A stretch of 64,000 bases of DNA from a virus. Where the stretch lies: IMG/VR virus record IMGVR_UViG_3300022225_001767; one strand, written 5' to 3'. Below the pieces are notes generated by a model that did not search any database, was not told the origin of the DNA, and saw nothing but the letters and a program-made list of their open reading frames with translations. Positions 813 through 59,245 of the stretch are shown here, piece after piece (the first letter of the stretch is position 1; each line of letters starts with the position of its first letter). Made by a program: the position numbers and the translations under genes.

Positions 813-855
813 TTGCCTTGAGTTGTTCATGATGTTAATATAACTTCGTCAACAC
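813..855 (+). promoter_or_regulatory. sigma70 promoter with GTCAACAC leader motif
   Basis: TTGCCT-17-TAATAT-6-GTCAACAC(848-855), then AGAGG RBS and ATG 868. Confidence 0.75.
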
Positions 856-867
856 AGAGGAATTTAT

Positions 868-1347
868 ATGTCATCTTTTATCTATAATGCATTTACATCT
901 AAAGCACTTATTGATATTGCCAATCGCGAGCTTAAAGCAATAGGCGCACGTACTCGTGTAAGCCGTGTGGTTAAATCTCATAGCGACGTGCTACCTGGCC
1001 TTATTCAAGTTAAAACGAACCGTGGTGCGGACGCGTTGTTACACGTATGGAACTATGGAAATCGCCTTGAAACATTGTGTGTACGAGGCATACATCGTAT
1101 CACAGACAAGTACGGCAAGTTCGGTTTGTTACCTAACGGACAGCCTACCAGAGGACTTCGCACTTACATCTTCAACGGCGAAATGGGCGACGCTTACGTT
1201 GCCAGCGAGGAAGACATCGCTCAGTTTGTCACGCTTACCTTTGACGGCGTTGATACTGACGTTGTAAATAAGCGCATTGCTGATTCCATTGATTTTGCAA
1301 ACCGCGCGCTAAATGGCCCTCTTGAAGCCATTCGCATTGCTGCATAA
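868..1347 (+). CDS. Hypothetical protein
   Basis: 159-aa ORF with good RBS; first gene of an apparent operon with the methyltransferase. Confidence 0.75.
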   Translation: MSSFIYNAFTSKALIDIANRELKAIGARTRVSRVVKSHSDVLPGLIQVKTNRGADALLHVWNYGNRLETLCVRGIHRITDKYGKFGLLPNGQPTRGLRTYIFNGEMGDAYVASEEDIAQFVTLTFDGVDTDVVNKRIADSIDFANRALNGPLEAIRIAA

Positions 1348-1358
1348 GGGGATATTTT

Positions 1359-2753
1359 ATGCTTAACCGCTTCATTACGCGCATTCAGAACTACGCCGTC
1401 AAGCATCTTAAAAATGGTGCAGCTCGCGTATACATCAAAAACACCGAAGCGCTGCAAGCAGCAGGGTTTTTGAAAAACACCAACATCCGCATTACATACC
1501 TTAAAAATGGCATCGACATTCATGTTGATCAGAACGGTAGCAATAAGGTGATGGACACCGGGCGCGGTGAACTGGTTGAGCTTAAAAATAAAGACACAGG
1601 CAAAGCACTGGCTAACACAGCAAAAGTGTCGGTTACTTTCCGAAAGGGCGTTTTACGTATACGTGTGCATGGCCTCGACGCCGCACAGCAATCGCGTGTA
1701 TCTCGCGTCATTAACACCCTGAAACAAGGCAAACCGCTGCGTACCGCGTGCTTTTTCTCAGGTTTAGGCATGCTTAGCTACCATGTAAAAGAAGGGCTTA
1801 AACGTGCAGGTGTGGCTACTGAAATTACGTTTGCCAATGATGTTGATGAACTGGCCATGAGTTGCAACCTTGAAGGCAACCCTATGTGGTTAAACGCCAG
1901 TGAAGATGCATTGGCTGTCACCGACTCATTGGATGCACTTCATTTATATGATCTTCCACAGGTTGACGTGGCGACTATTGGCTATCCTTGTGTTGGTCAA
2001 TCCATCTTAGCGGATAAAGAAAAGCGTGATCTAATGCACCCCTTAGTAGGCACGCTATTCATGCCACTTTTCACTGCACTGCGAAAAATGAATCCCGCGA
2101 TAATCGTCATTGAAAACACGCCACGTTTTGCGGCATCGCAAACCCTTGACTTGTTAATGCGCGCACTTCCTGATTATCAATTTGAGCAACGTGTTATGGA
2201 CGGTCACGATTACAATGAGATTGAATCGCGCAAACGCGTAGCGATTGTTGCCACTACAAAGGGCTTGCCTGCATTGAAACTAGACAATGTTCCGTCGTTA
2301 TTTAATGACGCTCCTGTGCGCACGCTTCGCGATATTCAGGACGACATCCCTTTGGATGCACCTTGTTGGCGTGAAATGCAGCACGTCAAAGCCCGTGACA
2401 ATATGGCACATTTAGGTTATCGAAATGCGCTGTATTTTGGTGATGAAACCACAATGACTACGTTGCCAGCCTCTTATGGGCCACCTAAAGCAGGCGTACC
2501 TATGTTTGCTCACCCTGTCAACGACAAGCTTCAGCGACAGGTCATGCCAAATGAGCATGCAGTACTACGAGAACTACCAGATAGCTTAAAGAAATGCATT
2601 GATGATGTGTGGAATGGCATTCACGCATTGGTTAGTAAGCGAGGCTCATTCAGTGCTGCACACCGTTTATGTGGCAATGGCGTATCTAAACGTATATGGC
2701 AAAGCGTAGGCGCATCATTAGGCCAACAAATGAAAGCTTGGCGTTACGCATAA
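1359..2753 (+). CDS. C5 cytosine DNA methyltransferase with N-terminal extension (IncC Dcm-like)
   Basis: Motifs FFSGLG (I), GYPC (IV), ENT (VI), RKRV (VIII), GNGV (X); about 120-aa N-terminal extra domain. Confidence 0.85.
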   Translation: MLNRFITRIQNYAVKHLKNGAARVYIKNTEALQAAGFLKNTNIRITYLKNGIDIHVDQNGSNKVMDTGRGELVELKNKDTGKALANTAKVSVTFRKGVLRIRVHGLDAAQQSRVSRVINTLKQGKPLRTACFFSGLGMLSYHVKEGLKRAGVATEITFANDVDELAMSCNLEGNPMWLNASEDALAVTDSLDALHLYDLPQVDVATIGYPCVGQSILADKEKRDLMHPLVGTLFMPLFTALRKMNPAIIVIENTPRFAASQTLDLLMRALPDYQFEQRVMDGHDYNEIESRKRVAIVATTKGLPALKLDNVPSLFNDAPVRTLRDIQDDIPLDAPCWREMQHVKARDNMAHLGYRNALYFGDETTMTTLPASYGPPKAGVPMFAHPVNDKLQRQVMPNEHAVLRELPDSLKKCIDDVWNGIHALVSKRGSFSAAHRLCGNGVSKRIWQSVGASLGQQMKAWRYA

Positions 2754-2773
2754 TTATTAACGAGGATAAGTAC

Positions 2774-2995
2774 ATGCAAACAATTATATGCAAACACGAT
2801 GATCGAGGTGGATTCGAAGTGCTTGGCACCGATGGGCAACCTGTTAGGATCATTCTTGTCGAAGATGATCACATGGATGCTGCCAACATTACGGTCAATG
2901 GCGACAGACACCTAATTGCCAACGAATTTGTTGCAGAAAGCAAACCTGACATGGTGGCGAACGCTATGCTCACCTACACGCCATTCGAAGGCTAA
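2774..2995 (+). CDS. Hypothetical protein
   Basis: GAGGA RBS before ATG 2774. Confidence 0.55.
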   Translation: MQTIICKHDDRGGFEVLGTDGQPVRIILVEDDHMDAANITVNGDRHLIANEFVAESKPDMVANAMLTYTPFEG

Positions 2996-3160
2996 AAAAT
3001 GGCATCAACATGAAAGTCGACTTTTTTGCATAGCAATTACGAAACACCACCAAAGATGAAGATGTGTGTCGTTGCCCCAAGTCAATCTTGGTGATAGAAT
3101 GTTGTAAGCGAACTGTCATAATACGTGGCAGCAATACTTATGGTGAAAACAGTCACTTTT

Positions 3161-3583
3161 ATGTTGAATATTACTTTTTACGCTTTACTTTCAATCGGGA
3201 TGTTGTTTTATAGTACAAGTGTGTACTGCTTGACGCTCATAGCACACCCCGACACCCCCAGCACGCTAAATGCGCAACAAGTTAAGCGCATCTTCACGGG
3301 CAAGCAGCGTCAATTCGATGATGGCAGCAGCGTCACCCCTGTCAACCAACCGGAAGGCTCTGTTGCAAGGGCACAATTTGACTCATCAGTACTCGGTCGC
3401 TCAACCTCTCAAATTACAGCGTATTGGTCTAAGCGTGTATTTACGGGCAAAGGCAAACCACCTATCGTCGTTGCTTCTGATGCTGAAATGCTGTCCTATG
3501 TGCAATCAACCCCAGGTGCAGTCGGCTATGTTTCTGACAATGAGGAGCCCAAAAAGGTCAGAGTAATAACGTTAACAAACTAG
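3161..3583 (+). CDS. Stand-alone small periplasmic-binding-fold protein (short 'phosphate ABC substrate-binding-like' family)
   Basis: Signal peptide; VKRIFTGK...YWSKRVFTGKGKPP...PGAVGYV family pattern; start uncertain. Confidence 0.7.
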   Translation: MLNITFYALLSIGMLFYSTSVYCLTLIAHPDTPSTLNAQQVKRIFTGKQRQFDDGSSVTPVNQPEGSVARAQFDSSVLGRSTSQITAYWSKRVFTGKGKPPIVVASDAEMLSYVQSTPGAVGYVSDNEEPKKVRVITLTN

Positions 3584-5581: not shown

Positions 5582-5767
5582 ATGTTAATTTTAACTCGAC
5601 GTGTAGGTGAAACTTTAATGGTTGGTGATGACGTTACCATTTCCGTATTGGGCGTCAAAGGCAATCAGGTTCGCATTGGCGTTAACGCGCCAAAAGAAGT
5701 CAGTGTGCACCGTGAAGAAATTTACATGCGCATTCAAAATGAAAAATCCAATCAAAAAGTGTCATAA
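5582..5767 (+). CDS. csrA: Carbon storage regulator (RNA-binding translational regulator)
   Basis: [48 protein letters not shown], near-canonical CsrA/RsmA. Confidence 0.97.
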
Positions 5768-5779: not shown

Positions 5780-5823
5780 TTGAACCACCACTCTCCTTGT
5801 GTTATCATTAAAAGTGTCAACAC
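5780..5823 (+). promoter_or_regulatory. sigma70 promoter with GTCAACAC leader motif
   Basis: TTGAAC-17-TATCAT-7-GTCAACAC(5816-5823), AAGGAG, ATG 5835. Confidence 0.7.
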
Positions 5824-9059: not shown

Positions 9060-10838
9060 TTACTTCTTTCTACGCCATACGCAGGCGCCCGCTAGCAACA
9101 CAGCCATCCACCCCATGCTACCACCGCCAGAGCTTCCACCGGCATTGCCGGCATTGCCGCCATTGTTGCCGCCGCCATTATTACCACCATCATTTCCACC
9201 ACCGCTATTATCCGTGGTGTCATTGATGTTGATGACCACTTCATCCACATCTACATTAATATTGTCATTAACAATACGTAGCGTAAAGCTTTCATCATCT
9301 TCCGTAGCGTCTGTCATTGTCGCAATCGCAATGCGCTTTGACGTTTCGCCAGGCTCGAAATTCACTGTGGTGTCTATTGCAGTGTAATCCTCTCCCGCTA
9401 CTGCGGTTCCATTAAATGACTTCACATTCACGGCCACAGCACCATCGCTACCGTTTTCACGAATGATGTCTACAAACGACGAGCTGCCCTCATTAACGGT
9501 TTTGCTCGCTTGCGAGAAAGAGAAAGTACCAGCATTACCTACATCATCCGACCCGATCGTGTAAGTTACAGACTTCACATCATTGTTAATCTCTACCCCG
9601 TTCGGGTTCATAACACGCAACACAAGCGTCTCACTCACTTCAAACTCGTCGTCATTAACAAGCTCAATGGAAAAAGTCGTTCGGCCTGTGCCATCATAAG
9701 TTAAAGGGATAATACCATCACCAACAATATCGTCTTTACTGATGGTGCTTGCATCATAGTCCACCACCAATTCAAAAGAACCGTGTGGCACGCCGTCTTG
9801 ACTTGCGTTAGCGGCATCGAATCGAGACCACAGTACGCTACCAGTCAATGCACCTGTACTTTCGTCCACAAATGCGCTGCCGACATCGATAGTGGCCAAG
9901 CCGTTAATATCGTTCATATCAACAATATTTCTCAACGCCCAACTAAAATCGGTTGGCGTCTCCGCGCGTTTTTCTTCAATTTTTGCAACGCCTTCTCGAT
10001 AGGCTGCGGCAGCATCTGCAACTTGCAACTCACCACAGGCTTCTCCAGTGTCTATGTCAGAGTGTGCAGGATCTGAAAAGAAGTGCTCGTCGGTATAGCT
10101 AAAACCGCGACTATCCATAATGGAATAGTTTGTGTCGCAGCGATCGCCTACAGCATAGGTCGCCAACATATAAGGCGTTGTTGTATCAGACTCTCGATTG
10201 TGTCGAAGACCATCATTGTGACCTAACTCGTGAGCCATGATGGTCACAGAGTGTTGTGTATTTTCATAAGGCGTCACTACCGCAGAATCACCACCTAGCG
10301 TGGCCTTCCCGACAAACGCATTAACATCATCAGTGTCGCGTTTAGCAATCATTACATAATAAGATGCGCCATATTGACCAAACGCGTTACTCATTGCCGC
10401 ACTGCCAGGCTCACCAGATGCGATTTCTGTAAAATAGCGAACAACAGATGACTCTGTCGTGTATAGCTCCGCGTCAACAAAATCATCTGAAATTGGCAGT
10501 ACGCCGACTGATGTTCGCGATAGGCCGATGCCTCCGCGTGCCAGTGTTTCATTATTGACGGCGATACTTTCGTCAATGAAGTTGTATAGCGCAATAGGAT
10601 CGCCATCAAAATAATCACGAAGCACGGCCTCAGAATAGAAAAACAGTATACCCGTCTCCGTTACCGTTGAGGGTGCTGGGTAATCGTAAAATGCCACTTG
10701 AGTAGGTTGTTTATTCTGTGATTCACCTACAAGCACTTTAGGTTCAAAGTATGAACTTGTAGCATGGACAGAACCTGCCGCAGTCGCAAACAAGCCCGCG
10801 ATAATCGCTGATGTTATTTTCTTTTGGTGTTGACGCAT
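9060..10838 (-). CDS. Secreted metzincin (reprolysin/M12B-like) protease with Calx-beta domain(s) and GlyGly-CTERM anchor
   Basis: Signal peptide; HELGHNDGLRH zinc motif plus Met-turn (YSIM); NGTAVAGEDY...TVNFEPGETSK Calx-beta; C-terminal GGGSMGWMAVLLAGACVWRRKK. Confidence 0.85.
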   Translation of the reverse strand: MRQHQKKITSAIIAGLFATAAGSVHATSSYFEPKVLVGESQNKQPTQVAFYDYPAPSTVTETGILFFYSEAVLRDYFDGDPIALYNFIDESIAVNNETLARGGIGLSRTSVGVLPISDDFVDAELYTTESSVVRYFTEIASGEPGSAAMSNAFGQYGASYYVMIAKRDTDDVNAFVGKATLGGDSAVVTPYENTQHSVTIMAHELGHNDGLRHNRESDTTTPYMLATYAVGDRCDTNYSIMDSRGFSYTDEHFFSDPAHSDIDTGEACGELQVADAAAAYREGVAKIEEKRAETPTDFSWALRNIVDMNDINGLATIDVGSAFVDESTGALTGSVLWSRFDAANASQDGVPHGSFELVVDYDASTISKDDIVGDGIIPLTYDGTGRTTFSIELVNDDEFEVSETLVLRVMNPNGVEINNDVKSVTYTIGSDDVGNAGTFSFSQASKTVNEGSSSFVDIIRENGSDGAVAVNVKSFNGTAVAGEDYTAIDTTVNFEPGETSKRIAIATMTDATEDDESFTLRIVNDNINVDVDEVVININDTTDNSGGGNDGGNNGGGNNGGNAGNAGGSSGGGSMGWMAVLLAGACVWRRKK

Positions 10839-17382: not shown

Positions 17383-17431
17383 GTGTTGACGTATTAAGCA
17401 TATCATAACAAACGTTGACCCTAGAGTCAAC
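17383..17431 (-). promoter_or_regulatory. sigma70 promoter with GTCAACAC motif and GTTGAC-N6-GTCAAC palindrome
   Basis: TTGACT-17-TATGAT-11-GTCAACAC(17390-17383); palindrome 17414-17431 over the -35. Confidence 0.75.
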
Positions 17432-19032: not shown

Positions 19033-19081
19033 GTGTTGACTGCATAATCAACAATCTACCTGAGAGTGTTGCCATTGTCAA
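19033..19081 (-). promoter_or_regulatory. sigma70 promoter with GTCAACAC leader motif
   Basis: TTGACA-17-TAGATT-12-GTCAACAC(19040-19033); imperfect palindrome GTTGAC-N6-ATCAAC at 19035-19052. Confidence 0.7.
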
Positions 19082-19863: not shown

Positions 19864-19884
19864 GTGTTGACCTCATGAATATTA
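19864..19884 (-). promoter_or_regulatory. -10 box plus GTCAACAC motif (no clear -35)
   Basis: TAATAT-7-GTCAACAC(19871-19864); TnpB-associated hairpin lies about 20 nt upstream. Confidence 0.55.
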
Positions 19885-19905: not shown

Positions 19906-20041
19906 GTTCAAACCTGATCATCAGTTTTGAACCAACGCTTTCGCGCCTGACGTGAGCAGCTACGCCAGTGAAACACACTGCAATTTATGTTCGTTCACCG
20001 TGAGAATAACCGGTGGACCGGTTTTCTCGGGCTGTTTGAAC
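19906..20041 (-). ncRNA. Candidate omegaRNA/right-end structure of the TnpB element
   Basis: Hairpin GTTCAAAC-CTGA-TCA-TCAG-TTTTGAAC (19906-19932) and hairpin GAGAAT-AACCGG-TGGA-CCGGTT-TTCTC (20002-20028) overlapping the ORF 3' end. Confidence 0.5.
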
Positions 20042-21621
20042 AAAGCAGTGTGTTTCTTCACAATTGCTTTCACTTTCCCCCAACGTTGCAGCGGGCCGCC
20101 GTCAATACTCACGGTCTTTGAGCGGGCACTGCAAAGTTGTGTACCAACATTATGTGGCACGGAAAAACGAATGCGATCATGTTTGAGTCCCAGCGTCCGG
20201 CGCGCAATGACTTGCGCGGCGGCCTGATGGGTCGTATTTTGGGTGGAATGGTATTTAAACATTCCGATAATCGATGTCATGGCCGGGTTGACGGCTTTGC
20301 AGGGTAAGCCCTCGCGGTAGCACCGGCGTTCAATCAGCGACAGCGCCATATCGTACGCAAAGGCGGACAGCATCGCTCTGTGATGCTTATTTGCGGTTTC
20401 CTTCATGGCTTGCTTCTTCCTGCTGAAGTCTAGTTTTTCAATCCCGACGCCGACATGGTGTTGCTTGGCAACCTCCACGACACGTTTCACGGCATCGCCG
20501 ATCATCGCCATGCGTTGCCCAGTTGTCAGTCCTTTGGCGGATGCCGGGCAGGGGATATCTTCGACATGTTTTTTGTTACCATCCTGAGTGACGACGCACA
20601 CGGCTAGGTGGTCAGCATTAACATCGACGCCTAAGCAGCCATTTTCGTAGCTTCCTGCTATCTCTTCAGGGGCCGGCTCTTCGACGGTCATCGCCAGTGT
20701 CCAGCCGAATTTATGGCGCATGAAGCGCATGGTTAAGGGTTGACCATACGAAGACAACACTTCATTTTTGGTTTGCGGACGCAACTCACCGGTTTTCCGA
20801 TCTTTCACCCAAGGTGACGAACGGGTCAGCGCTTTCACGTTAGCTGCCCGACGACGCTCATTCTCCGCACAGGCCGCTAATATATTGGACTTTCCGTAGT
20901 TAAAATCGAAACCTGACAGCTCAACTTTACCGCCACCCAGAGCATCTGGTAGGCGCAAAGACAACCTGAACTCACCGTCGTTATCAACGTACAGTTGCGC
21001 GCCCTGATTGCCGCAGGTTTCATCCTTCGAGCCCAGCACCATGAACTGTGATGAACGGGAGCTTTGCCACTCGTCAAGCCATTCAGCATGGTTGTTCAGG
21101 TTATTTTCTTTGAGAAAAAATTGCTTGTTAAACAACTTTTTCGATCCAAAACACATGGCGGGGATCTTGCCGATGTTATCCGCAATTTTCTCAATTTGAG
21201 TAGATAGCCGGGCCCGATACCGGGGTTTTTGGTGCGCTTTGAAACGGACTTTTTGAATTTCAGACGGTACGCCGCCTGTTTTTGACAGCATATTCGCTTG
21301 GTCACGAAGCCGCTCAATGGTTTTTGAGACCGCTTCGATACGCTCTTTTTTATCAACCTGATAAAGCTTATCTAGTTCGCGTTTTGAATCCAGCTTGCCG
21401 GTTAACGTGCGCAGCACCGCATTATATTGCCTAGCGCTGATCTGATATGTGCTGATAAAGTGACGTTTTCGCTCATTGGCCGTCATTTTATCCGCGCAAA
21501 GGCTTGCGTAAAGCTTGCGTTCCACACGCCCGAACAACGCCGCATACGCAGAAAGTGAACTCTCTGTTTCGGCATCAATATCGGCTGACTTGATCAGCGT
21601 GGTGTATGTGGACGTCTGCAT
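19960..21621 (-). mobile_element. tnpB: Solo TnpB-related RuvC protein (IS200/IS605 or IS607 accessory type), no TnpA adjacent
   Basis: RuvC-I GVDVNADH, RuvC-II IEKLDF, VNPAMTS...HQAAAQVIARR; no zinc finger; sequence appears GC-richer than its flanks. Confidence 0.78.
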
Positions 21622-21865
21622 AGTTCAGACTATACACCACAACGTTTTTGATGTGAACGTCTACCGTATAATTTCGCAGAAAAAACCGCCATCAATGTCA
21701 TCACATCACGGCACAGTGTCTGTTCAAAAGTGGTTTCATCGTCGCCATCAAGACGATATCGCCGGTGACCACCGAGCGTCTACGAAAAGATTACCAAAAG
21801 TTCACATTAAAGTTAATTTTTTTTGTTGATTTCTCACACCTACAGTGTCTTATTTTATATTTTTG

Positions 21866-21908
21866 TTGACCGCACCGTCACCACTTGATATTCTGTACAC
21901 GTCAACAC
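21866..21908 (+). promoter_or_regulatory. sigma70 promoter with GTCAACAC leader motif
   Basis: TTGACC-17-TATTCT-6-GTCAACAC(21901-21908), GAGGA, ATG 21924. Confidence 0.75.
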
Positions 21909-23656: not shown

Positions 23657-23700
23657 TTGTTTTTATAGGTTAAGTCTGAGATAATAATTCCCGTCAACAC
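23657..23700 (+). promoter_or_regulatory. sigma70 promoter with GTCAACAC leader motif
   Basis: TTGTTT-17-GATAAT-7-GTCAACAC(23693-23700). Confidence 0.7.
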
Positions 23701-26985: not shown

Positions 26986-27028
26986 GTGTTGACCACACAA
27001 CTATACCAAAAAACGCGAGATTTTGAAA
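26986..27028 (-). promoter_or_regulatory. Promoter with GTCAACAC leader motif
   Basis: TTTCAA-17-TATAGT-6-GTCAACAC(26993-26986), ATG 26971. Confidence 0.65.
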
Positions 27029-27831: not shown

Positions 27832-27881
27832 TTTTTATCCTTGGGTTAATTTGTTAATTATCTTGCTATAGGAAGATTTAT

Positions 27882-27951: not shown

Positions 27952-28175
27952 CACACTCACTCACACTACAAAAAAGTGTAAAAACTTATCTTGCTATTGA
28001 AACTTCTATTTTTCAGTGTTATTGTTTCTACAGTGCACCTTTTATCATTCCTCTGATTTTTTGGGTGCACCCCAACGTATTGTGCTTGGACACGCAATAC
28101 TCTCGCCTCTCTTTTTAGGGAGGCTTTTTTTTATCTTCCTATTGCTTTTATATCAATATACCCTATTATTACTAT

Positions 28176-28282
28176 AAGGTAGCCATCCACGGTTACCCAG
28201 CTCCCTCACCAACGTTTCCCCTCGGTGTTCTCTGGTATGTGTTGACAGCTATCATAAAGCATAAGGAAACGGAGGGAGCGCA
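28176..28282 (+). ncRNA. Candidate structured sRNA or leader RNA 1 carrying the anti-GTCAACAC seed
   Basis: TTGCTT-16-TATTAT promoter; 5' hairpin 28178-28197; long stem 28200-28219/28265-28279; loop holds ATGTGTTGAC 28237-28246. Confidence 0.55.
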
Positions 28283-28391
28283 CCTCTTCTATTGAAATCT
28301 CTTCCTATTTATGCCATAATTCATCTTGTCATCACATTGCATCAAGTAGCCCCCTTTATAACAATGAAAGCTGCTTGCCACAGGAGAATTC

Positions 28392-28796
28392 ATGCAGGAC
28401 TGTTTTTCTTTTCTGTCTCATCGTGTAGCGTTGAGGTCAGACGGTACTATATTATTAGAAAATCAATTAACGGGATCGACAATACCTCTGACTCAAGAGT
28501 CGATTGCGACGTGGACCTGCCCCCTTTACCCTGCTCAACGTGAGCGAAAAATCGGGGGGAATATTACGGTAACACATGAGAGCGATAATTATTGCACCCT
28601 GCGAATTGGCGCGCGTTACTATGTTATGCCTTATACACTATTTTGCATACTCAACAAGGCGCTTCTTATTATAAAAGTTTACCCGCTGAGTACACTCAAC
28701 CTAACGTTAAGTAACTTGTTGTATCGACTATCAAAAGGCGCATCGACGTCATCGTTGATACAGACCTCTTCACACGCGCTACCGATAGCCGTATAA
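28392..28796 (+). CDS. Hypothetical protein
   Basis: CAGGAG RBS, 134 aa. Confidence 0.55.
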   Translation: MQDCFSFLSHRVALRSDGTILLENQLTGSTIPLTQESIATWTCPLYPAQRERKIGGNITVTHESDNYCTLRIGARYYVMPYTLFCILNKALLIIKVYPLSTLNLTLSNLLYRLSKGASTSSLIQTSSHALPIAV

Positions 28797-28810
28797 TTTA
28801 AGGAAAATCC

Positions 28811-29089
28811 ATGAGACGTCTACATCACACGCTATTTATATCTTTATCAATGCTCGCATTGTCAGCCTGTCAATCTGTAGCCGATGACGTGAGAAACGAA
28901 GAGCCTACATGCAATAACATCCAGGCTCAATGCCTGATTGCTTGGGACCGTTACTTAAACCTAACTGAGTCAGCATATCAAACATGCATGTCCCACAGCG
29001 GTCGCTGCGAAGAGCTTGAAACATTATTAAGCCAAGGGCGAGAAAACATGGTGTCGCTGGTAGAAAGACGTACGCGTTCTGAGCAGTAA
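28811..29089 (+). CDS. Small lipoprotein
   Basis: Lipobox LSAC; paired Cys. Confidence 0.7.
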   Translation: MRRLHHTLFISLSMLALSACQSVADDVRNEEPTCNNIQAQCLIAWDRYLNLTESAYQTCMSHSGRCEELETLLSQGRENMVSLVERRTRSEQ

Positions 29090-32200: not shown

Positions 32201-35180
32201 TCCATCCACCCCATGAGCCTTCTTTCAGACCATTCATGGTGTTGGTGCGATTTTGCGTCCGATCAATCGTTCTAGACTCACTTCGCGTACTCAATGTTTC
32301 AGCGCCCGCTTTGTATGTCCATGTACGAGTCTGATCTGTCTTATACGTGCGAGATTGCGTATAGCTCGACGTGCGCGTGCCAGGCTCTGGCGTATAGGCT
32401 GAATACGTATGGTTACGCACATTTGACCAGTTGCCTGCTGCAACATCAACCGTGCGAGATTGTGTGCTTGGTACGCTTTGCGTACCTGTCTCGTTACTTC
32501 TAAATGTATTACTGCTATATGTCCACTTATAATACGTTGCGCGTGTGCGCTTTTGTGGCTGCTGGCAGCTTCGTGTTTGCGTGAAGTCCGCTGTTTGTGT
32601 ACTTGGCGCAGGTGAGTAACCGCCGCAATTTAATGCGCCGTCATTGCTCCATGAAGACCAGCTTCCGTAAGCAATGCCTTCCATCTTATTAGTTCGCGTC
32701 TGCGTCACAGGAACACGTTTCGTCTCTTCAAAAGAGGCAATCTCTGTCCCGCCTACACTGTAAACACGCTCACGCTTTTGAGGCTGCTGACAATCTCTTG
32801 ACTGCGTGTAATCAGCCGTTTTAGTGCCAGGTTCACCACCCCAAGCGTCACAGCTTTCAACTGAACCATAATTTACCCAGTTAGTATAGCTTACTTTAAC
32901 AGCACGTGACTGCGTTGAACCGTCAGTGCGCGTTTCCGTTTCAGTCTCTTTAAACGTATCTGAGCTGTGCGCCCATGTGTAAAAAGTGTCACGCTCACGC
33001 TTCTGAGGTGTACCACAATCTCTTGATTGCTGGTAGTTTGCTGTTTGCGAAGCAGGCTCAGGCCCCCATGCGCCGCAGCTAATAGGACCTGTGTTTGTCC
33101 AGCCACTCCACGCATCATTTTTAACGCCATTCATCGAATTGGTACGTGTTTCACTCTTGTCGAGTGTTCGCGTTTCTTGTCGAGTGCTTAGCGTTGTTGT
33201 ACCGTCAGCATAGCTCCATGTTCTTACCTCGTCTTGCTTGAATGTGCGCGACTGCGTGTAGCTTGATGTACGTGCACCGGGTGCTGGCGTCCATCCGCTG
33301 TACGTATTTTTATCCACTAGCGACCACGACGATGGTGTAACAGTTACCGTACGAGAATCCGTTCTTGATGCCGTACCCGTATCAGTCTGCGTTTCTTTAA
33401 AGGTGTTGTCACCGTAAGTCCAGCTGTAGTGGACGTCTCTGGTTCGCTCTTGTGGACGGGTGCATGTTCTTGATTGGCTAAAGTTGGCTGTTTGCGCGCC
33501 TACTGCTGGTGAGAATGTGCCGCAGGTTTCTGCACCACTGTCAGCAAAAGGTGACCATGCGCCATAAACAAGGCCATCCATCTTATTAAGACGAGATTGT
33601 GATACGCGAACCGTTTGCGATTCTTCTACGCGTTTCAGCTCACTGCCTGATGCAGCATAAATGCGTTCTCTTACTTGAAGTTGATCGCACTCTCTTGATT
33701 GTGTGTAGTCAGAGGTATTGCTGCCAGGCTCTGGCGACCATGCAGAACAATTTTGCACACCGTTCTTGTTTGTCCACGATGTCCAGTCTACGGTTACTGT
33801 ACGCGATTCCGTTGTCGGATCGGTTCGCGTTTCCGTTTCTTCAGCTTTAAACGTATTGTCACTGTGCGTCCACGTATAGAAAGTGTCACGCTTTCGCTCT
33901 TGAGCCGTGCCGCAGTCGCGCGTTTGTGTAAATGCGCTGGTTTGCGCATCAGGCGCAGCGCCCCATGCGCCACACACAGTGGCCGCAGTGTCAGTCCATG
34001 AAGACCAACTATCAGCTACGACACCTTCCATGACGTTTTTACGCGTCTGCGTTACATCAATATTTTTACTTTCTTTAACCGTGCTTAATGTCTCTCCACC
34101 CGCGGTGTAAATACGATCTCGCGTTTGAGGCTGTTCACAGCTTCGTGTCTGGTCATAACTGGCAACTCTTCCCTGAGGCTCTGTTCCCCACACACTACAA
34201 CTAACTACATCACCCTCGTTAGTCCATGGTGTAAATGTCACGCCTACCGTTCTGTTTTCCGTACGCGTCACTGTTTGCTCATGGGTTTCAGTTCGGTTGA
34301 GCGTTTCTTTACCTGACACCCATACATCGAAGAAGTCCTGTGTTCTCTCCTGATCGCGCGAACAATCTCTCTCCTGACCAAAATCAGCCAATTGCCCGCC
34401 GACAGACGGAGACCAAACGGCACAGTCATAATTTCCGGTTACATCTACCCATGGAGATGGCGTGTCTGGACGAATTCCGTCAATCTCATCACGCTGCCCA
34501 ATCTCTGGTCGCGTTTGCTCAACCGTTATGGTTTGTTCCTCACTGTCAATGCGCTTTGGTGTCTCAGCACCCGATGCCCATACATTGTAAACGTTTCTGC
34601 TTCGAGTCTGATCTTGCGAGCAATCGCGCGCTTGCGTGAAGGGTTCATAAAGTCTTACGTCTGATGTCGATGGATCCCACACAGAGCAGTCGTAAGGGGC
34701 ACCGCTATTAGACCACTCAGGCCATGCATCTGCACGCTCACCATCAATGAAGTCACGCGTACCAATATTATTTTGATAATCGCCAACAGAGATGGAACGG
34801 GTATCTTCGAAAGTGTCACCTAATTTTGTGCGTTGTGAAACAGGGTTGAAGAGAATAGGTGTCGCATTTCTTACTTGTGGCTGCTGGCACACACGCGACT
34901 GTTGAAAAGATTCACCCCAATCCTTTGTGTTTGGATCAGGTTGCCAACCCGAACAAGAGCTAAACCCACCTGAATTCACCCAAGGTGTGTAGTTGTAATT
35001 GATGACAATCCACTCAGGAACGTTCACTTTGTTTTCTATGTTCATTTTGAAGCGATAAATAGGTTTGTCATTACTCGCTTCTTGAGCAAAGGCATCTGCT
35101 GATAATGCCAGCCCCCCCGTAAGGGCGGAAAGTAACATAATCGCCGTATTCTTTTTCCTGACCGTGAATTGACTTTTCAT
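29235..35180 (-). CDS. Giant secreted repeat protein with thrombospondin-type-1-like repeats (putative adhesin)
   Basis: Signal peptide; about 149-aa units with WSGWS..C..TQTRSC..PQKRTR; Thr/Ser/Trp/Arg-rich. Confidence 0.85.
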   Translation of the reverse strand: MKSQFTVRKKNTAIMLLSALTGGLALSADAFAQEASNDKPIYRFKMNIENKVNVPEWIVINYNYTPWVNSGGFSSCSGWQPDPNTKDWGESFQQSRVCQQPQVRNATPILFNPVSQRTKLGDTFEDTRSISVGDYQNNIGTRDFIDGERADAWPEWSNSGAPYDCSVWDPSTSDVRLYEPFTQARDCSQDQTRSRNVYNVWASGAETPKRIDSEEQTITVEQTRPEIGQRDEIDGIRPDTPSPWVDVTGNYDCAVWSPSVGGQLADFGQERDCSRDQERTQDFFDVWVSGKETLNRTETHEQTVTRTENRTVGVTFTPWTNEGDVVSCSVWGTEPQGRVASYDQTRSCEQPQTRDRIYTAGGETLSTVKESKNIDVTQTRKNVMEGVVADSWSSWTDTAATVCGAWGAAPDAQTSAFTQTRDCGTAQERKRDTFYTWTHSDNTFKAEETETRTDPTTESRTVTVDWTSWTNKNGVQNCSAWSPEPGSNTSDYTQSRECDQLQVRERIYAASGSELKRVEESQTVRVSQSRLNKMDGLVYGAWSPFADSGAETCGTFSPAVGAQTANFSQSRTCTRPQERTRDVHYSWTYGDNTFKETQTDTGTASRTDSRTVTVTPSSWSLVDKNTYSGWTPAPGARTSSYTQSRTFKQDEVRTWSYADGTTTLSTRQETRTLDKSETRTNSMNGVKNDAWSGWTNTGPISCGAWGPEPASQTANYQQSRDCGTPQKRERDTFYTWAHSSDTFKETETETRTDGSTQSRAVKVSYTNWVNYGSVESCDAWGGEPGTKTADYTQSRDCQQPQKRERVYSVGGTEIASFEETKRVPVTQTRTNKMEGIAYGSWSSWSNDGALNCGGYSPAPSTQTADFTQTRSCQQPQKRTRATYYKWTYSSNTFRSNETGTQSVPSTQSRTVDVAAGNWSNVRNHTYSAYTPEPGTRTSSYTQSRTYKTDQTRTWTYKAGAETLSTRSESRTIDRTQNRTNTMNGLKEGSWGGWTNTGSISCGNWGPTPSTQTADFSQTRSCGTPQKRERDIFYTWAHSSDTFKEKDAETRTNGSTQSRTVDVSVGGWSAVKDHTYSGWTPEPGSRTSNYTQSRTYKQDQKRTWTYKVGTTTIDTRDETRTVDQSQNRTNSMKGIAYGGWSGWSNNGSLDCGGYSPAPSTQTSDFTQTRSCSQPQKRTRATYYTWDYSSNTYRNTETDTQNVSSTQSRTVDVTVGGWSAVRNHTYSAYTPEPGTRTSNYTQSRTYKQDQKRTWAYKVGSTTLDTRDETRTVNKSQNRTNSMTGIVYGNWSGWSNNGSLSCGNYSPAPSTQTSNFTQTRSCGQPQKRTRATYYGWAYSDNTYRNTETDTQTVGSTQSRTVAVSVGGWSYVRNHTFTGWTPEPGSRTSNYTQSRTYKQDQKRTWTYKAGTTTLDTRDETRTVDMNQSRTNSMKGIAYGGWSGWSNNGSLSCGGYSPAPSTQTSDFTQTRSCSQPQKRTRATYYTWDYSSNTYRNTETGTQNVSSTQSRTVDVTGGGWTYVRNHSFSSWTPEPGTRTSSYTQTRTYKQDQKRTWTYKVGSTTLSTRDDTRTTNQSQSRTNRMKGIAYGSWSGWSNNGSLSCGGYSPAPSTQTSNFTQTRSCNQPQKRTRATYYTWDYSSNTYRNTETDTQNVGSTQSRTISVSVSGWSTVRTHSHGTFTPAYGNQTANYTQTRPYKRDVTRTWTYKAGSNTLTTRPENTTWDQTQSRTVAVTHNGWQDVGSPTCGSWTGGSTQTRSCTQPQQVTYVHKINGNTVHTQTKNGSRSYTQSRTLTTQQSTGAWQRTGYSCTSWTPAQSSYYTFETKTQTQRCTENRKRAITTTTNYSDGSAPTTNVTYQYDTVVTNPTRRRSGTKQDSVVSTETRTTQSQSSANVRRRLVSPEAKYTEAEFCARNPIGFYRSDEYTWSETTIVTKYYYWDTYQSGRVLQRSSTPYKTTTSSSFNGVFKALVPNTNRTGVCGGSGGSSF
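30000..34800 (-). repeat. In-frame tandem repeats, period about 447-450 bp
   Basis: M[KTNED]G[IVL] unit starts recur at about 30450, 30895, 31340, 31790, 32235, 32680, 33135, 33580 and 34030. Confidence 0.85.
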
Positions 35181-35399
35181 AATTTTCTCTCTCTTGTTTA
35201 TTCGCCGCAGCAGCGCAACATAAGCAAACAGTTCAAAGTGTGTCTCTTTTTATCCACAGTAAGGTATCACTTTTCTGAAAAAACGACGGGATAAATGTGT
35301 TTTTTTTAAATATTTATACCTTTTTGTCGCTAATTCACCCATATAACAAATTGCTGTAAAAAATCTTGACACCTAAAGCGAAGTGTGAGAATCTTCTAA

Positions 35400-35546
35400 G
35401 CATAGATTTTATGAGCAGGTGCAACAGTGCCTGCCACAGCTCCGCCACCCCGACCTCTGTGATGTGTTGACGCTATTCACGCTAAAAAAATGGGGTGGCA
35501 CCCTCTCACTAGTGGTGGTGAACTGGCCGGCGAAAGCCGGCCTTTT
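35400..35546 (+). ncRNA. Candidate sRNA 2 carrying the anti-GTCAACAC seed
   Basis: TTGACA at 35366; 5' hairpin 35415-35434; stem GCCACCCC/GGGGTGGC 35444-35451/35492-35499; seed ATGTGTTGAC 35462-35471; terminator 35525-35546; no ORF. Confidence 0.65.
35525..35546 (+). terminator. Intrinsic terminator
   Basis: GGCCGGC-GAAA-GCCGGCC-TTTT; T-tract only on the + side. Confidence 0.8.
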
Positions 35547-35777
35547 ACTATCCAAATCAATACCAATCTAATTTCTTGCCCTCTCTAACGTTAACCTCAA
35601 CTTAACCACTTCAATCACACTTGTTGCATTTTTGTTTAATTTTATGTGTTATCTAAATTTTACTGTTGACTTTGTGTTCAGTTCTGGTATTATTTAAACC
35701 GTCAAACAAACAGCAAGCCAATAACGCTTGTTAAACATGAATATATTATTCACATCAACCACCACAGGATATACATT

Positions 35778-36867: not shown

Positions 36868-36910
36868 TTGATTTCTCACCCCTGTTTTGAGATAATAACC
36901 ATGTCAACAC
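36868..36910 (+). promoter_or_regulatory. sigma70 promoter with GTCAACAC leader motif
   Basis: TTGATT-17-GATAAT-6-GTCAACAC(36903-36910). Confidence 0.7.
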
Positions 36911-38868: not shown

Positions 38869-38898
38869 GTTGACTTTGAGGTCAACATTTGAGATTAT
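38869..38898 (+). promoter_or_regulatory. sigma70 promoter with GTTGAC-N6-GTCAAC palindrome
   Basis: Palindrome 38869-38886; TTGACT-17-GATTAT. Confidence 0.65.
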
Positions 38899-40179: not shown

Positions 40180-40938
40180 ATGTTGCGCCTCTTACTATGC
40201 CTGTTTTCTTCACTTGTTGTAGTGGGTTGCACAACCACGCCAGTGAATGTAAACGAAGAGACAACGCCAGAACGTTGCACTGCATCCCCCCTTACCAATA
40301 CAGCACCCCAAAAAGGATGGTACCGTAACCCCTTTGTGCCAGATGCCTGTTTCTACTTATATCGTCAAGCAGAAGATTTTTTTGCGATAACTAAAACCAA
40401 GCTCTTCAACGACGCTCATGTCCACGAGGTTTTTGTTGACAAAATTGTCACCTCTCGTAACAGCCAGCCTCAAGCATGGCTTTTATACTACCCTAAACGC
40501 AATCGTTATCACGGTATTGTACTGGTAGACACAAAATCATCCGCGTTTACAACGTACCGAGACTTGACCAAAAAATTTCCATTGCTGCTTCAGCATCATC
40601 AGCTATTCGCCTATCTTCATGAACTCACACACCTTTCACCGCTCCTAACGTACAGTAAAACACCTGATTCAACGCAAGAGAGCATCGCCGATATTGTTGC
40701 GATAACAATGCTGTCGAATGTTATGCGCTTTAATGAAGTTCAACGCGAGCAACTAGCGAACGAAGTGCTTGCATTTCGCACGCTGTCTGTTGAGCTAGGT
40801 TACGCCATGCCCGAGCGAATAAATGTTGAGACGTTAAAATCATTCACGCTGACACTTCCCGTTATAAAGGGAAATGTAGACTACAACGGACTCATTGACG
40901 TTATGCTTGAGAGTGCTATAAATGTTGACTTAAAATGA
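40180..40938 (+). CDS. Lipoprotein with HExxH metallopeptidase-like motif
   Basis: Lipobox VVGC; LHELTH...QESIAD. Confidence 0.65.
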   Translation: MLRLLLCLFSSLVVVGCTTTPVNVNEETTPERCTASPLTNTAPQKGWYRNPFVPDACFYLYRQAEDFFAITKTKLFNDAHVHEVFVDKIVTSRNSQPQAWLLYYPKRNRYHGIVLVDTKSSAFTTYRDLTKKFPLLLQHHQLFAYLHELTHLSPLLTYSKTPDSTQESIADIVAITMLSNVMRFNEVQREQLANEVLAFRTLSVELGYAMPERINVETLKSFTLTLPVIKGNVDYNGLIDVMLESAINVDLK

Positions 40939-40967
40939 TTTTTTTGAGATAATTTATACGTCAACAC
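40925..40967 (+). promoter_or_regulatory. sigma70 promoter with GTCAACAC leader motif
   Basis: TTGACT-17-GATAAT-6-GTCAACAC(40960-40967), GAGGA, ATG 40982. Confidence 0.8.
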
Positions 40968-42417: not shown

Positions 42418-42460
42418 TTGACACCCCAAGCTATTTTTGAGATAATAAGATGGTCAACAC
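42418..42460 (+). promoter_or_regulatory. sigma70 promoter with GTCAACAC leader motif
   Basis: TTGACA-17-GATAAT-6-GTCAACAC(42453-42460), AGAGG, ATG 42474. Confidence 0.8.
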
Positions 42461-42473
42461 AAGAGGATTCAAC

Positions 42474-47806: not shown

Positions 47807-47851
47807 GTGTTGACGTGTATTAATAATAGCAAAAATACGCACGAGAATCAA
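47807..47851 (-). promoter_or_regulatory. sigma70 promoter with GTCAACAC leader motif
   Basis: TTGATT-17-TATTAT-8-GTCAACAC(47814-47807). Confidence 0.7.
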
Positions 47852-51229: not shown

Positions 51230-51272
51230 TTGACAACCCTCACAAAAAGCGAGATAATAACATTGTCAACAC
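51230..51272 (+). promoter_or_regulatory. sigma70 promoter with GTCAACAC leader motif
   Basis: TTGACA-17-GATAAT-6-GTCAACAC(51265-51272). Confidence 0.8.
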
Positions 51273-51545: not shown

Positions 51546-51591
51546 TTGACTCCCTGATCACAAATTACTATCATCTCTACAACGTCAACAC
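51546..51591 (+). promoter_or_regulatory. sigma70 promoter with GTCAACAC leader motif
   Basis: TTGACT-17-TATCAT-9-GTCAACAC(51584-51591), AAGGAG. Confidence 0.8.
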
Positions 51592-52384: not shown

Positions 52385-52471
52385 TTTCTGTTTCCTCTTT
52401 TATGTTGACGGAAACAATAATACTAAATCACATCATGACAGACTACAGACTATAAGTAGCATTTTACTTTT

Positions 52472-56059: not shown

Positions 56060-56067
56060 TATATTTC

Positions 56068-56746: not shown

Positions 56747-57238
56747 ATGAAATATGTTATCTGCTCTACTCTCGCAACAATGCTTGCAATCACGCCTATG
56801 CTAACCCATGCAAAGAAACCTCCCGCTGTGCTGCCTATCATCGACACGCTTGGAGGTATAACGTTGGGTAAAGTCAACCCTGATGCGCGAGGATGGGTGA
56901 TGACCCCTGAAAATAACGGCGGCGTCCGTTACCAACAGGTTCCTCAGCGTTTCACTAGTGATGAAGAATATCACATTGTGCTTGCAGAATACCTCACTGA
57001 CGATAGCGATATTGCTGTTGAGTCTAGTATTACTGTGACGTTTTCGTCTACAACATATTGTCAATCTGAATTCTCAGCACTATACCGCCGCTACGCTAAA
57101 GTGCACAACGAGTCGCTCGCCCCAAAAAACTCAGAGACGACTTGGATTACATCTACCGACCATGTGTTGACATGGCGAGAGCATTGCGGCGATGAGACCC
57201 CCACGTTCTCTATGACGCTATCAAAAAACCCGCAATAA
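56747..57238 (+). CDS. Secreted hypothetical protein
   Basis: AAGGA RBS, signal peptide. Confidence 0.7.
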   Translation: MKYVICSTLATMLAITPMLTHAKKPPAVLPIIDTLGGITLGKVNPDARGWVMTPENNGGVRYQQVPQRFTSDEEYHIVLAEYLTDDSDIAVESSITVTFSSTTYCQSEFSALYRRYAKVHNESLAPKNSETTWITSTDHVLTWREHCGDETPTFSMTLSKNPQ

Positions 57239-57247
57239 GCGGGTTTT
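57223..57247. terminator. Bidirectional terminator
   Basis: AAAACCCGC-AATAA-GCGGGTTTT. Confidence 0.8.
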
Positions 57248-57269
57248 GTTTATCACGTAAAGCGCGTTC

Positions 57270-58439
57270 TTAATTTGCGTTGAACAAATCTCGACTATAG
57301 ACCTTATCTAACACATCACTGATTTCGTCCGTTACTCGGTTGGCAACAATCACATCAGATTGCGCCTTAAACACGGCCAGGTCATTTACCACGCGCGAAT
57401 TATAGAAGCTTTCTTCCTCCAACACAGGCTCATAGACAATCACTTCAATGCCTTTAGCCTTTATGCGCTTCATTATCCCCTGGATGGCGCTTGCTCGGAA
57501 ATTGTCCGACCCTGATTTCATGATAAGTCTATACACACCAACTACTCTGGGGGCACGACTTACAATTGAATCTGCAACAAAATCCTTACGGGTCCGATTT
57601 GCCTCCACAATGGCCTGAATCATGTTGTTAGGCACATCGCTGTAATTGGCCAACAGCTGTTTGGTATCTTTAGGCAGGCAATACCCGCCGTAACCGAAAC
57701 TCGGGTTGTTATAATGCTTGCCAATACGCGGGTCAAGCCCCACACCTTCGATGATCTGCTTTGTGTCTAATTGATTGCGTTCTGCGTAGCTGTCTAATTC
57801 ATTGAAGTAGGCTACCCGCATTGCCAAGTAGGTGTTAGCAAAAAGCTTAATAGCCTCTGCCTCTGTATTGTCAGTAAAGAGCACGTCGACATTTTGTTTT
57901 ACAGCACCTTGCTGTAGCAACCCCGCGAACACGGCAGCTCTCTCACTGCGCTCACCGACGATGATCCTACTTGGATGAAGATTGTCATACAGCGCACTCC
58001 CTTCACGTAAAAACTCAGGAGAGAAAATGAGGTTTTGGGTATTAAATCGCTCCCTTGCGTGCCTGGTAAAGCCAACGGGGACCGTTGACTTGATGATCAT
58101 TGTCGCATCAGGGTTAACAGCCATCACATCGTTGATAACGGCATCGACGCTGCTTGTATCAAAGTAATTGGTTGTCGGGTCATAATCCGTTGGCGTCGCA
58201 ATGATAACAAAATCGGCATCTTTGTAAGCGGATTTTGCATCGAGCGTGGCCTCAAAATGCAACGACTCTCTTTTTAGAAACGCACTAATCTCTTTATCTT
58301 CGATAGGCGACGTCTTTTGATTAAGCAATTCAACTTTACTGGCAACAATATCTACTGCTGTTACTACATTGTGCTGCGCGAGCAACATGGCGTTAGACAA
58401 CCCCACATAACCCGTACCTGCAACAGCGATATTAAACAT
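57270..58439 (-). CDS. ugd: UDP-glucose 6-dehydrogenase
   Basis: [57 protein letters not shown]. Confidence 0.95.
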
Positions 58440-58507
58440 ACCATCTTTACCACTCGGTAGGGTTTCAGATACCCTACCACAGCTTACATTTCCTTTTGTA
58501 TTCGTAC

Positions 58508-59005
58508 TCACTCTTCACCCTTTTGTTGATTATCCGCAGACTGCGATTTTTGTTCACACGCGGCATTATATGCCTCATTAATCACGTTTGCTCGCCATTT
58601 CTCGGCTTTTTCTGTTAACGATTGGATATCTTTTGCGTATATCCATGTCGATGTATATCTTCCCCAGGAGTAACCATAGCTGTGTCTATCGAGCTCGTCA
58701 GAGTTTAGCTTGGTCATAAAATCATTTGGCAGCGGCGTTTCCACTTGCGCCAACACACCACACACATTCATTTCGTTGGCAATAAGATAAATCAACTCAC
58801 TAGTGTCATCGTAGTCTTCGACACCTTTCACCCCCATTTGATCTAATGCAGGCTTTATTTCGTCAATGTCATACAACGCGTCTTTTAAAGACTGCGGCGC
58901 CGTTTCTTCGGAGGTCACTAAATCCATAATTATAACGTTACTGAACCGCAATTCACTTTCAAATAACGTTTCTCTGTTAACATTGAAACCTGTTTGTGTT
59001 GACAT
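58508..59005 (-). CDS. Hypothetical acidic protein
   Basis: Promoter TTGATT-17-TAGATT-6-GTCAAAAC; an exact GTCAACAC overlaps its start codon. Confidence 0.7.
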
Positions 59006-59201
59006 TATTCACCTATTTAAGTTTGTTGTTTTGACGTGTCTAATCTACTACAAACATAACCTTTAATCAAATTTAAATTGATATTCACACCTCCTTCTGA
59101 TGTTGTTAAAAAAGAAAAAGCGGCACACAACGGCAGCGTAAAAGAACGTGCCGAATGTCGAACTTACCATACCCAAACTTATCTTGCTTAACTCATGAGT
59201 C

Positions 59202-59245
59202 TTGACAACCCTCTTAACTTTTGGGACAATACTTCATGTCAACAC
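59202..59245 (+). promoter_or_regulatory. sigma70 promoter with GTCAACAC leader motif
   Basis: TTGACA-17-GACAAT-7-GTCAACAC(59238-59245). Confidence 0.75.

Follow-up and report, generated by a model that had tools for sequence, protein, structure and literature searches.

The c4 RNA of P1 and P7 and the CI RNA of P4 are small structured RNAs that pair through their loops with boxes near a ribosome-binding site and silence genes of the resident element. FinP, which acts on traJ with FinO in F-like plasmids, CopA and Sok are cis-encoded, fully complementary plasmid antisense RNAs with a single target each, and LhrC, RsaE and RoxS are small RNAs (sRNAs) with CU-rich loops and multiple targets. 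Plasmid regulons can also be protein-based, as are those of ArdK and KorA of R388 and of the CUP repeats of pKM101. The establishment regulon of Reg576 of pLS20 is likewise protein-based (PMC6294495, PMC8708921), and the Qrr1-5 sRNAs of Vibrio are paralogs with a common single-stranded seed and many mRNA targets (PMC3730234). Here we analyse a 64,000-nucleotide stretch of DNA, IMG/VR virus record IMGVR_UViG_3300022225_001767 (hereafter the window), in which one octamer, GTCAACAC (the tag), recurs at the predicted 5′ ends of transcripts, while its complement is presented in the loops of predicted structured RNAs (anti-tag RNAs 1 and 2 in the window and a third one beyond it). We consider it fairly probable, from the sequence evidence set out below, that many transcripts of the element share a 5′ label which is read by a family of small base-pairing RNAs.

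The likeness to c4 and CI lies in the exposed loops of a mobile-element RNA, which would pair in trans with short boxes, and the third RNA, like c4, has two copies of its recognition sequence. In c4 and CI, however, one operon is controlled through boxes within a single leader, whereas here at least 29 units have a box at or within about 6 nt of the predicted 5′ end and the RNA genes are three and dispersed; neither sequence nor Rfam similarity connects them to c4 or CI. FinP resembles the RNAs described here in being a plasmid stem-loop RNA with a YUNR-type loop turn (UUGA here) and in pairing with a leader next to the Shine-Dalgarno (SD) sequence. FinP, CopA and Sok are nevertheless encoded in cis and have one target, whereas our candidates are encoded in trans, match over 9-16 nt and would have many targets; the window shows no FinO/ProQ gene. 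A shared seed in an otherwise divergent body, directed at the translation-initiation region of many mRNAs, recalls Qrr, LhrC, RsaE and RoxS. The targets of those sRNAs offer diverse independent sites or a generic SD, in contrast to the identical, promoter-linked tag found here, which is private to a mobile replicon. As in the regulons of Reg576, ArdK/KorA and CUP, dispersed promoters of anti-restriction or establishment type share a short motif, but there the reader is a DNA-binding protein on a dyad or repeat, and here the motif is an asymmetric 8-9-mer at the transcript start and the complementary reader found is an RNA. Judged by sequence, the system is set apart from known ones by an identical tag at or next to at least 29 predicted 5′ ends, by one promoter class and by three dispersed candidate reader RNAs.

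All copies of the octamer were extracted with their flanks, and the upstream DNA was scored with a sigma-70 model; transcription start sites (TSSs) are predictions from the sequence, placed at the seventh nucleotide past the -10 hexamer. The window holds 20 copies of GTCAACAC against 2.66 expected, a number reached in none of 100 dinucleotide-preserving shuffles. Sixteen exact copies, and one copy of the variant GTCAACAT at 52402, stand in promoter context at predicted +1 to +7, which bears out the earlier note on this DNA, where at least 15 promoters had been said to place the tag at the mRNA 5′ end. Among the 16 the tag starts at +1 in seven, at +2 in three, at +3 in one, at +4 in two, and at +6 and +7 in one each. 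At 58996 the start is ambiguous: 32 nt upstream there is a variant tag whose -10 box is better placed, and this leader may carry two tags. The two copies at 10827 and 57164 match the chance expectation, and the last two are the anti-tag RNA loci.

The promoters at the tags are often of the type TTGACA-17-TGnGATAAT, with an extended -10 element. The start codon lies 11-20 nt past the tag in 15 of the 16 copies in promoter context, and the SD sequence 1-10 nt 3′ of it. An A follows the octamer in 12 of the 16 and a C or T precedes it in 12 of the 16, so that the flanking-base counts given earlier were about right. A profile of 21 promoters from the window and its relatives defines the conserved unit as the octamer plus an A at +9 (17 of 21), with a weaker bias to A at +10 and to C at -1; otherwise only the promoter hexamers and the SD stand out. 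The tag is a single asymmetric 8-9-mer, is always in sense orientation, and is tied to promoters, with none before operon-internal genes. Among GTCAACNN words, GTCAACAC is the sole enriched one, with 20 copies versus 1-7 each for GTCAACAT and for AA, AG and other endings. A general restriction or methylation site was rejected as an explanation of the octamer, since GTCAAC outside the tags occurs near chance frequency.

According to Pfam, which confirmed the gene identities proposed in the earlier note, the tagged set comprises three C5 methyltransferases, a DndB-like and a DndC-like protein, a PIF1 helicase, an NTase-PcfJ fusion, cpYpsA and many orphans. The absence of tags from surface cargo, csrA and ugd, claimed there as well, holds for csrA. 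The start of ugd, however, overlaps, as GTGA, with the stop codon of the preceding tagged gene, and ugd is therefore probably tagged by operon, being co-transcribed, and a Calx-beta protease gene has the octamer after its ATG. The csrA homolog itself (5582-5767, + strand; Pfam E 3e-25) has its own untagged promoter and lies directly 5′ of the tagged cpYpsA gene.

The search along the replicon and its relatives, which had been proposed in the earlier note, yielded 13 further tagged promoters in the next ~27 kb of the right flank, the third anti-tag RNA, and the tag together with an ortholog of RNA 2 in a divergent relative (L142). The total is at least 29 tagged promoters over ~90 kb. No promoter-context tag was found in 9 kb of the left flank, which encodes thyA, an S30AE factor and phosphoglucomutase, and the tag thus marks a domain starting near window position 848. 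A shared tag with trans-acting anti-tag RNAs is still the best-supported reading, given the conservation in L142, a compensated stem, purifying selection and the third RNA, but the label “element-wide” was too strong for a system that leaves this left flank untagged.

Some promoters carry variants of the tag. That of the 346-aa secreted repeat protein (35703-35712) has a conserved GTCAAACAA at the tag position, where L142 (~8515) has GTCAAACGA, and gene 28392 carries GTCATCAC. Judging from their sequences, these variants might escape or weaken the pairing.

Both non-coding loci of the window are best read as structured RNAs of the + strand. Their folding energies deviate from those of shuffled sequences on this strand (z-scores of -3.3 for RNA 2 and -3.5 for RNA 1), and the minus strands give -1.8 and -0.2, respectively. 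RNA 2 ends at a strong + strand terminator with 7 bp, all GC, and has no + strand gene upstream. As the earlier note had described, the two unlinked loci have one fold: an outer GC-rich stem surrounds an inner hairpin whose 12-14-nt loop opens with UGUGUUGAC, although the stems have no sequence in common. The pyrimidine anti-SD tract was also found where it had been placed, as a CUCU 4-5 nt 5′ of the seed; in each of the three RNAs tested, the first three bases of the CUCU are predicted to be unpaired and the fourth is less clearly so. For the seed's UUGA core, which we take to match the YUNR loop motif of antisense RNAs, the probability of being unpaired is 0.8-1.0 in the same three. The seed duplex of 9 bp amounts to -11.6 kcal/mol, and opening the 9-nt seed costs 2.6-3.5 kcal/mol; RNAduplex over-extends duplexes on whole leaders and was left out of the evidence. 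When three RNA loci are aligned, the single invariant block is ATGTGTTGAC, and a putative extended -10 element of the type TGnGAGnnT stands before RNA 2, its L142 ortholog and the third RNA.

Other roles for the two loci were considered, since on the minus strand each shows the tag followed by AGAG. As two more tagged promoters of the minus strand they score 5.5 and 7, without a -35 box, versus 8-12.5 for the tagged ones, and a 37-codon minus-strand open reading frame at locus 2, a possible type I toxin, has no -35 box either. Both readings were dropped because the minus-strand -10-like hexamer loses its final T in L142 (GTGAAG) and the short reading frame is not conserved there. The copy at 35471 is not the promoter tag of the 1981-aa gene, whose contigs end at 35237/8 in three independent runs, and the copy at 28246 is not that of gene 27082, whose contigs end near 27855. 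A search with Rfam 15 gave no match in the window at gathering score, and neither locus had a relevant match at E <= 1, with P1/P7 C4, IsrB and FinP among the families included. Just 5′ of RNA 1 lies a further sRNA candidate (28035-28135, + strand; z -6.6) with three hairpins including a terminator; its first loop is CAUUCCUCUGA, which is anti-SD-like, and its second loop contains GGA. This candidate has neither an L142 homolog nor an Rfam match.

The third anti-tag RNA, predicted at 257 nt (z -5.9), displays CUGUUGUGUUGACGCC in a ~20-nt loop on a 10-bp stem unrelated in sequence to the others. This loop is complementary to GGCGUCAACACAACAG, the leader consensus in its extended form, +9 to +13 included. 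Contiguous pairing past the octamer averages 2.8 nt versus ~1.0 in the control, and the pairing with leaders reaches 11-16 nt, the maximum of 16 contiguous nucleotides being predicted for the PcfJ leader (36903). The core GTGTTGAC is present twice, and the second anti-tag pairs with a sense tag inside the same RNA, which, if the fold is right, may serve as self-masking or as a target mimic. The locus is identical in three variant contigs, one of which differs by 2.4% over the surrounding 16.6 kb. Over ~100 kb, all intergenic octamer copies outside promoters fall inside structured, terminator-linked units of the + strand (RNA 1 without a terminator of its own), and the anti-tag loops are closed by four unrelated stems.

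Strain variants and relatives were compared next to these predictions. In 13 variant loci at 94-99% identity, one of the 149 positions of the RNA 2 body is variable (an indel in an A-run, in L136); in the rest of the spacer 33 of 448 positions vary, and most neighbouring genes vary by 5-9%. In seven tagged promoters, none of the 56 octamer positions is variable, versus 36 of 363 upstream and 17 of 280 downstream, and substitutions hit even the few bases that separate the -10 box from the invariant tag. We take these variants to show purifying selection on the tag and on RNA 2. In the divergent relative (L142/L143/L146), the PcfJ-fusion protein is 42% identical and the coding DNA ~65%; there the PcfJ homolog and a gene next to it are each preceded by an exact tag with the layout unchanged, and another operon is preceded by GTCAACAT. 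The RNA 2 ortholog in L142 has an extended -10 element (TGcGAGACT, TGtGAGAAT in the window), shares the inner hairpin and the seed with its counterpart, and has a 38-nt 3′ module with terminator identical to that of the window. The outer stem GCCACCCC/GGGGUGGC of the window becomes GCCGCCC/GGGCGGC in L142, an exchange of A-U for G-C, and the ortholog folds alike in the minimum free energy and centroid structures. The 115-nt core of RNA 2, 82% identical, is the best-conserved stretch between the window element and L142.

Beyond this lineage the searches returned little. Relatives of the PcfJ fusion found with HMMER fall in identity from 43% to ~30%, and two sampled relatives at ~30%, on short contigs, had no tags. 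The 336-aa protein of the 40960 unit has relatives solely at 95-100% identity; in viral contigs neither a relative of it nor a copy of the RNA 2 3′ module was found. In metagenome contigs, an RNA-module pattern that excluded the variants had no match, and a generic one returned one unrelated terminator and one variant at 94%. The pattern GAGATAAT-N6-tag gave chance matches in viral contigs, and in 596 Gb of genome contigs the matches listed were single chance ones in unrelated taxa, 16 specified bases being too few. In the literature the octamer turned up in an Aca paper, merely as the -35 box of an oligonucleotide.

How could such RNAs act? A sigma-70 promoter class would write GTCAACAC(A) at, or no more than a few bases from, the beginning of the transcript, and the loop of an anti-tag RNA would nucleate on the single-stranded 5′ tag over 9 bp, extended to 11-16 bp with the third RNA. 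Tag pairing, together with contact between CUCU and the SD, would occlude the ribosome-binding region or leave the mRNA open to decay, and the tagged genes would be held low after the RNAs have accumulated. More tentatively, this RNA “address label” could be the main silencing circuit, comparable to a phage repressor at the RNA level, with tagged genes for DNA modification, anti-defence and accessory functions firing when the RNAs are missing or titrated, as on entry into a new cell or a change of copy number, and being shut off later. In the ~100 kb looked through, neither conjugation genes nor an oriT came to light, so that establishment on entry is something that we can only infer.

The metatranscriptome data are unstranded contigs. 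In three metatranscriptomes, tagged genes with near-consensus promoters had word depths of 0-11 and untagged neighbours 11-686, which fits steady-state silencing, although depth in contigs gauges expression poorly and does not tell transcriptional control from control after transcription. In run X1 the interval 35239-35416 is uncovered and coverage then extends rightwards from 35417, which is 18 nt past the predicted start of RNA 2 and the same offset as for other predicted TSSs. The top contig representation, with a depth of up to ~686, belongs to the gene of the 1981-aa repeat protein (29235-35180, minus strand), which has its own untagged promoter, a TSS at ~35238-35241 and a 57-nt leader; the L136 version has 2280 aa, and the repeat number varies.

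Hundreds of public seawater assemblies contain the element in near-identical form, on contigs of up to 486 kb; it reaches extremely high abundance in seawater metagenomes and occurs in many seawater metatranscriptomes. The replicon exceeds 400 kb and is megaplasmid-like. Searches of PLSDB with its DNA, in near and distant mode, gave no match. Its PIF1 helicase has 52.5% identity with a protein encoded on pAMCP48-600. This distant relative, the nearest one known, is a 604-kb conjugative chromid of Alteromonas mediterranea (PMC5217437) and is reported to encode its own CsrA. Because pAMCP48-600 shows no enrichment of the tag (17 copies versus 12 for the control) and no homolog of the RNAs, the tag/anti-tag system is confined to the lineage that comprises the window and L142. 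Many promoters of pAMCP48-600 (NZ_CP018025.1 201988-243316), including those of dnaN, a methyltransferase and an exoribonuclease, have a palindrome AAATCA-N4-TGATTT instead, which is absent from the window and is probably an operator regulon; no mention of it was found in the available part of the describing paper (PMC5217437).

The window has a palindrome of its own, GTTGAC-N6-GTCAAC, with two exact and three one-mismatch copies against 0.2 expected. It overlies the -35 box and spacer of three promoters, namely those of the DndC-like gene, of a C5 methyltransferase and of gene 38926. At 38869 the strains agree in both half-sites and differ in the spacer and in the base that follows the right half-site. 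We regard this palindrome as probably the operator of a dimeric DNA-binding protein and as distinct from the tag.

Could the octamer be read in the DNA rather than in the RNA? It would then be an operator over +1 for a repressor of the element, or a methylation site that gates initiation, and the copies in the RNA genes would be more binding sites or unrelated. We consider this unlikely, although +1 to +7 is a classic repressor location, GTCAAC is a half-site of the palindrome over three promoters, several DNA methyltransferases are encoded on the element, pAMCP48-600 offers the precedent of a probable operator at many promoters, and a low RNA level of tagged genes fits transcriptional repression equally well. 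The tag, however, is single, asymmetric and sense-only, without a dyad; it reads differently from the palindrome because GTCAACAC is specifically enriched while the seventh base of the palindrome varies. Pfam finds no helix-turn-helix or ribbon-helix-helix protein in the window, though one may be encoded elsewhere on the >400-kb replicon, and loop-presented complements on the opposite strand, in conserved units with unrelated stems, would be left unexplained. That the tag is tied to promoters and never found at operon-internal genes suggests that the 5′ end matters, which would also suit a feature of the RNA 5′ end that is read by an RNA-binding protein or a nuclease or acts as an enhancer of stability or translation, with the anti-tag RNAs as competitors or activators, for example through 5′-end protection. 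The element has its own CsrA, and the internal sense tag of the third RNA could mimic a target, yet CsrA recognises GGA motifs, which differ from the octamer. No candidate tag-binding protein was found; the 346-aa neighbour, whose faint KH signal had made it a candidate KH-type RNA chaperone, has a signal peptide and would be secreted. As the seed-adjoining CUCU and the low levels of tagged genes fit repression better, we think such a reader very unlikely. It is highly improbable, finally, that the tag is a functionless passenger of a duplicated promoter cassette and that the RNA loci are decayed inverted copies of the promoter. Several promoters do have a longer block in common, TTTTGAGATAAT-N6-tag, but most tagged promoters diverge in -35, spacer, -10 and gap while the octamer stays 8/8. 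The octamer is also free of variation where adjacent gap bases vary and is kept across elements at ~65% DNA identity, and the RNA loci have conserved hairpins and terminators and no remnants of -10 or -35 boxes.

Several points weigh against the reading that we prefer, in which base-pairing RNAs recognise the tag. The octamer shares its GTCAAC core with the operator-like palindrome. The putative sRNA promoters are weak or oddly spaced and are missed by a standard consensus scan; RNA 1 lacks its own terminator, and its transcript may read into gene 28392, whose promoter follows downstream. The net energy of pairing is ~-8 to -9 kcal/mol, with a seed of 8-9 nt that is partly shut by a 3-bp mini-helix. 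The outer stem is backed by one double compensatory change, and its exact pairing is tentative because RNAalifold, applied to a MAFFT alignment, favours a different outer helix that involves the invariant GUGGUGG. Tag and seed are invariant in every relative found, which leaves no change in which covariation could show. The metatranscriptome contigs are unstranded, and the TSSs are predicted: run X5 has no contig over RNA 2, run X6 covers the region from 35320, upstream of the predicted RNA 2 start, and the contigs at the 42453 unit begin 15-24 nt past the tag, which itself lies outside them. The coordinates of all tags, RNAs and palindromes are given in Table 1.

Table 1. Coordinates of tags, anti-tag RNAs and palindromes (window positions unless a contig is named; gaps are between the -10 box and the tag, and +n is the predicted start of the tag).
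Feature	Position	Strand	Details
Tag, operon of 159-aa gene and C5 methyltransferase (868-2753)	848..855	+	TAATAT, 6-nt gap, +1; Pfam DNA_methylase
Tag, cpYpsA (SLOG) gene	5816..5823	+	TATCAT, 7-nt gap, +2; Pfam cpYpsA
Octamer ATGCGTCAACACC	10827..10834	-	right after ATG of Calx-beta metalloprotease gene; kept in L152, L153; extra target or chance copy
Tag, DndC-like 1006-aa gene	17383..17390	-	TTGACT-17-TATGAT, +6; palindrome 17414-17431 over -35 box and spacer
Tag, DndB-like gene	19033..19040	-	TTGACA-17-TAGATT, +7; Pfam DndB
Tag, 236-aa gene	19864..19871	-	weaker promoter (score 8), +4
Tag, C5 methyltransferase gene (473 aa)	21901..21908	+	TTGACC-17-TATTCT, +1; Pfam
Tag, C5 methyltransferase gene (394 aa)	23693..23700	+	TGaGATAAT, 7-nt gap; Pfam
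Tag, PIF1-like helicase gene	26986..26993	-	TATAGT, 6-nt gap, +1; Pfam PIF1
Anti-tag RNA 1, ends uncertain	28178..28290	+	outer stem 28200-07/28272-79 plus 28214-19/28265-70; CUCU 28230-33; inner stem 28233-37/28250-54; seed 28238-28246
Putative RNA 2 promoter	35366..35392	+	TTGACA, 15 nt, TGtGAGAAT (extended -10)
Anti-tag RNA 2, ~149 nt	35399..35547	+	5′ hairpin; outer stem 35444-35451/35492-35499; CUCU 35455-35458; inner stem 35459-62/35477-80; seed UGUGUUGAC 35463-35471; terminator 35525-35542
Tag, NTase-PcfJ fusion gene	36903..36910	+	TGaGATAAT, 6-nt gap; layout kept at 42%-identical L142 homolog
Tag, 336-aa gene	40960..40967	+	TTGACT-17-TGaGATAAT, 6-nt gap; tag invariant among variants
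Tag, 247/178/424-aa operon	42453..42460	+	near-consensus TTGACA-17-TGaGATAAT; metatranscriptome contigs begin at 42468, 42477
Tag, 109/119/153-aa operon	47807..47814	-	TTGATT-17-TATTAT, +3
Tag, 83-aa gene	51265..51272	+	TTGACA-17-GATAAT, 6-nt gap
Tag, 65-aa gene	51584..51591	+	TTGACT-17-TATCAT, +4
Variant tag GTCAACAT, 163-aa gene	52402..52409	-	TATTAT, 7-nt gap; C-to-U would keep a G-U pair with the seed
Octamer	57164	-	antisense within coding sequence; fits chance expectation
Tag, 158-aa gene and ugd	58996..59003	-	upstream variant GTCAAAAC at 59028, 6 nt past TAGATT
Tag, 118-aa gene	59238..59245	+	TTGACA-17-TGgGACAAT, 7-nt gap
Third anti-tag RNA	L160:19956-20212	+	~17 kb past right edge of window; TTGACA-17-TGaGAGGAT before, terminator at end
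GTTGAC-N6-GTCAAC, exact	17414-17431, 38869-38886
GTTGAC-N6-GTCAAC, one mismatch	21865-21882, 19035-19052, 40435-40452

A TnpB-related gene (19960-21621, minus strand; 553 aa) lies among the tagged units; its C-terminal part matches NF040570 at E 1e-11, below the curated cut-off, and Pfam gives nothing. Strain variants L004, L163 and L164 have extra IS605/TnpB insertions near it. An RNA-guided repressor of the TldR type is a misfit here: targeting by a target-adjacent motif plus guide does not fit because the shared 8-mer has variable flanks among the targets, and the anti-tags lie in hairpin loops far from this gene.

Genes 28392 and 28811 (28392-29089) are hypervariable among strains, with 134 of 698 positions differing, next to RNA loci that are invariant, and in one metatranscriptome contig 28423-28648 is replaced by a diverged segment of equal length. 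Directly 3′ of the PcfJ-fusion gene (~38.8 kb), an insertion is present at the same spot in L002/L003/L006 and in L142. It consists of two tyrosine-recombinase genes followed by a gene of ~690-750 aa (447/535/747 aa in the window type, 393/496/689 aa in L142), and in L142 it also holds a RecD2-like helicase and an Eco47II-type restriction-modification pair.

What would the system mean for the element and its hosts? If confirmed, it would be the largest known set of bacterial transcripts united by an identical 5′-terminal sequence under dedicated small RNAs, and it would match, at the post-transcriptional level, the establishment and backbone regulons that plasmids run with proteins. The design, with one 9-nt tag and one seed, would be portable and reprogrammable by compensatory changes. 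If true, the system would control methyltransferase and DNA-modification genes, through which gene flow among marine bacteria is shaped.

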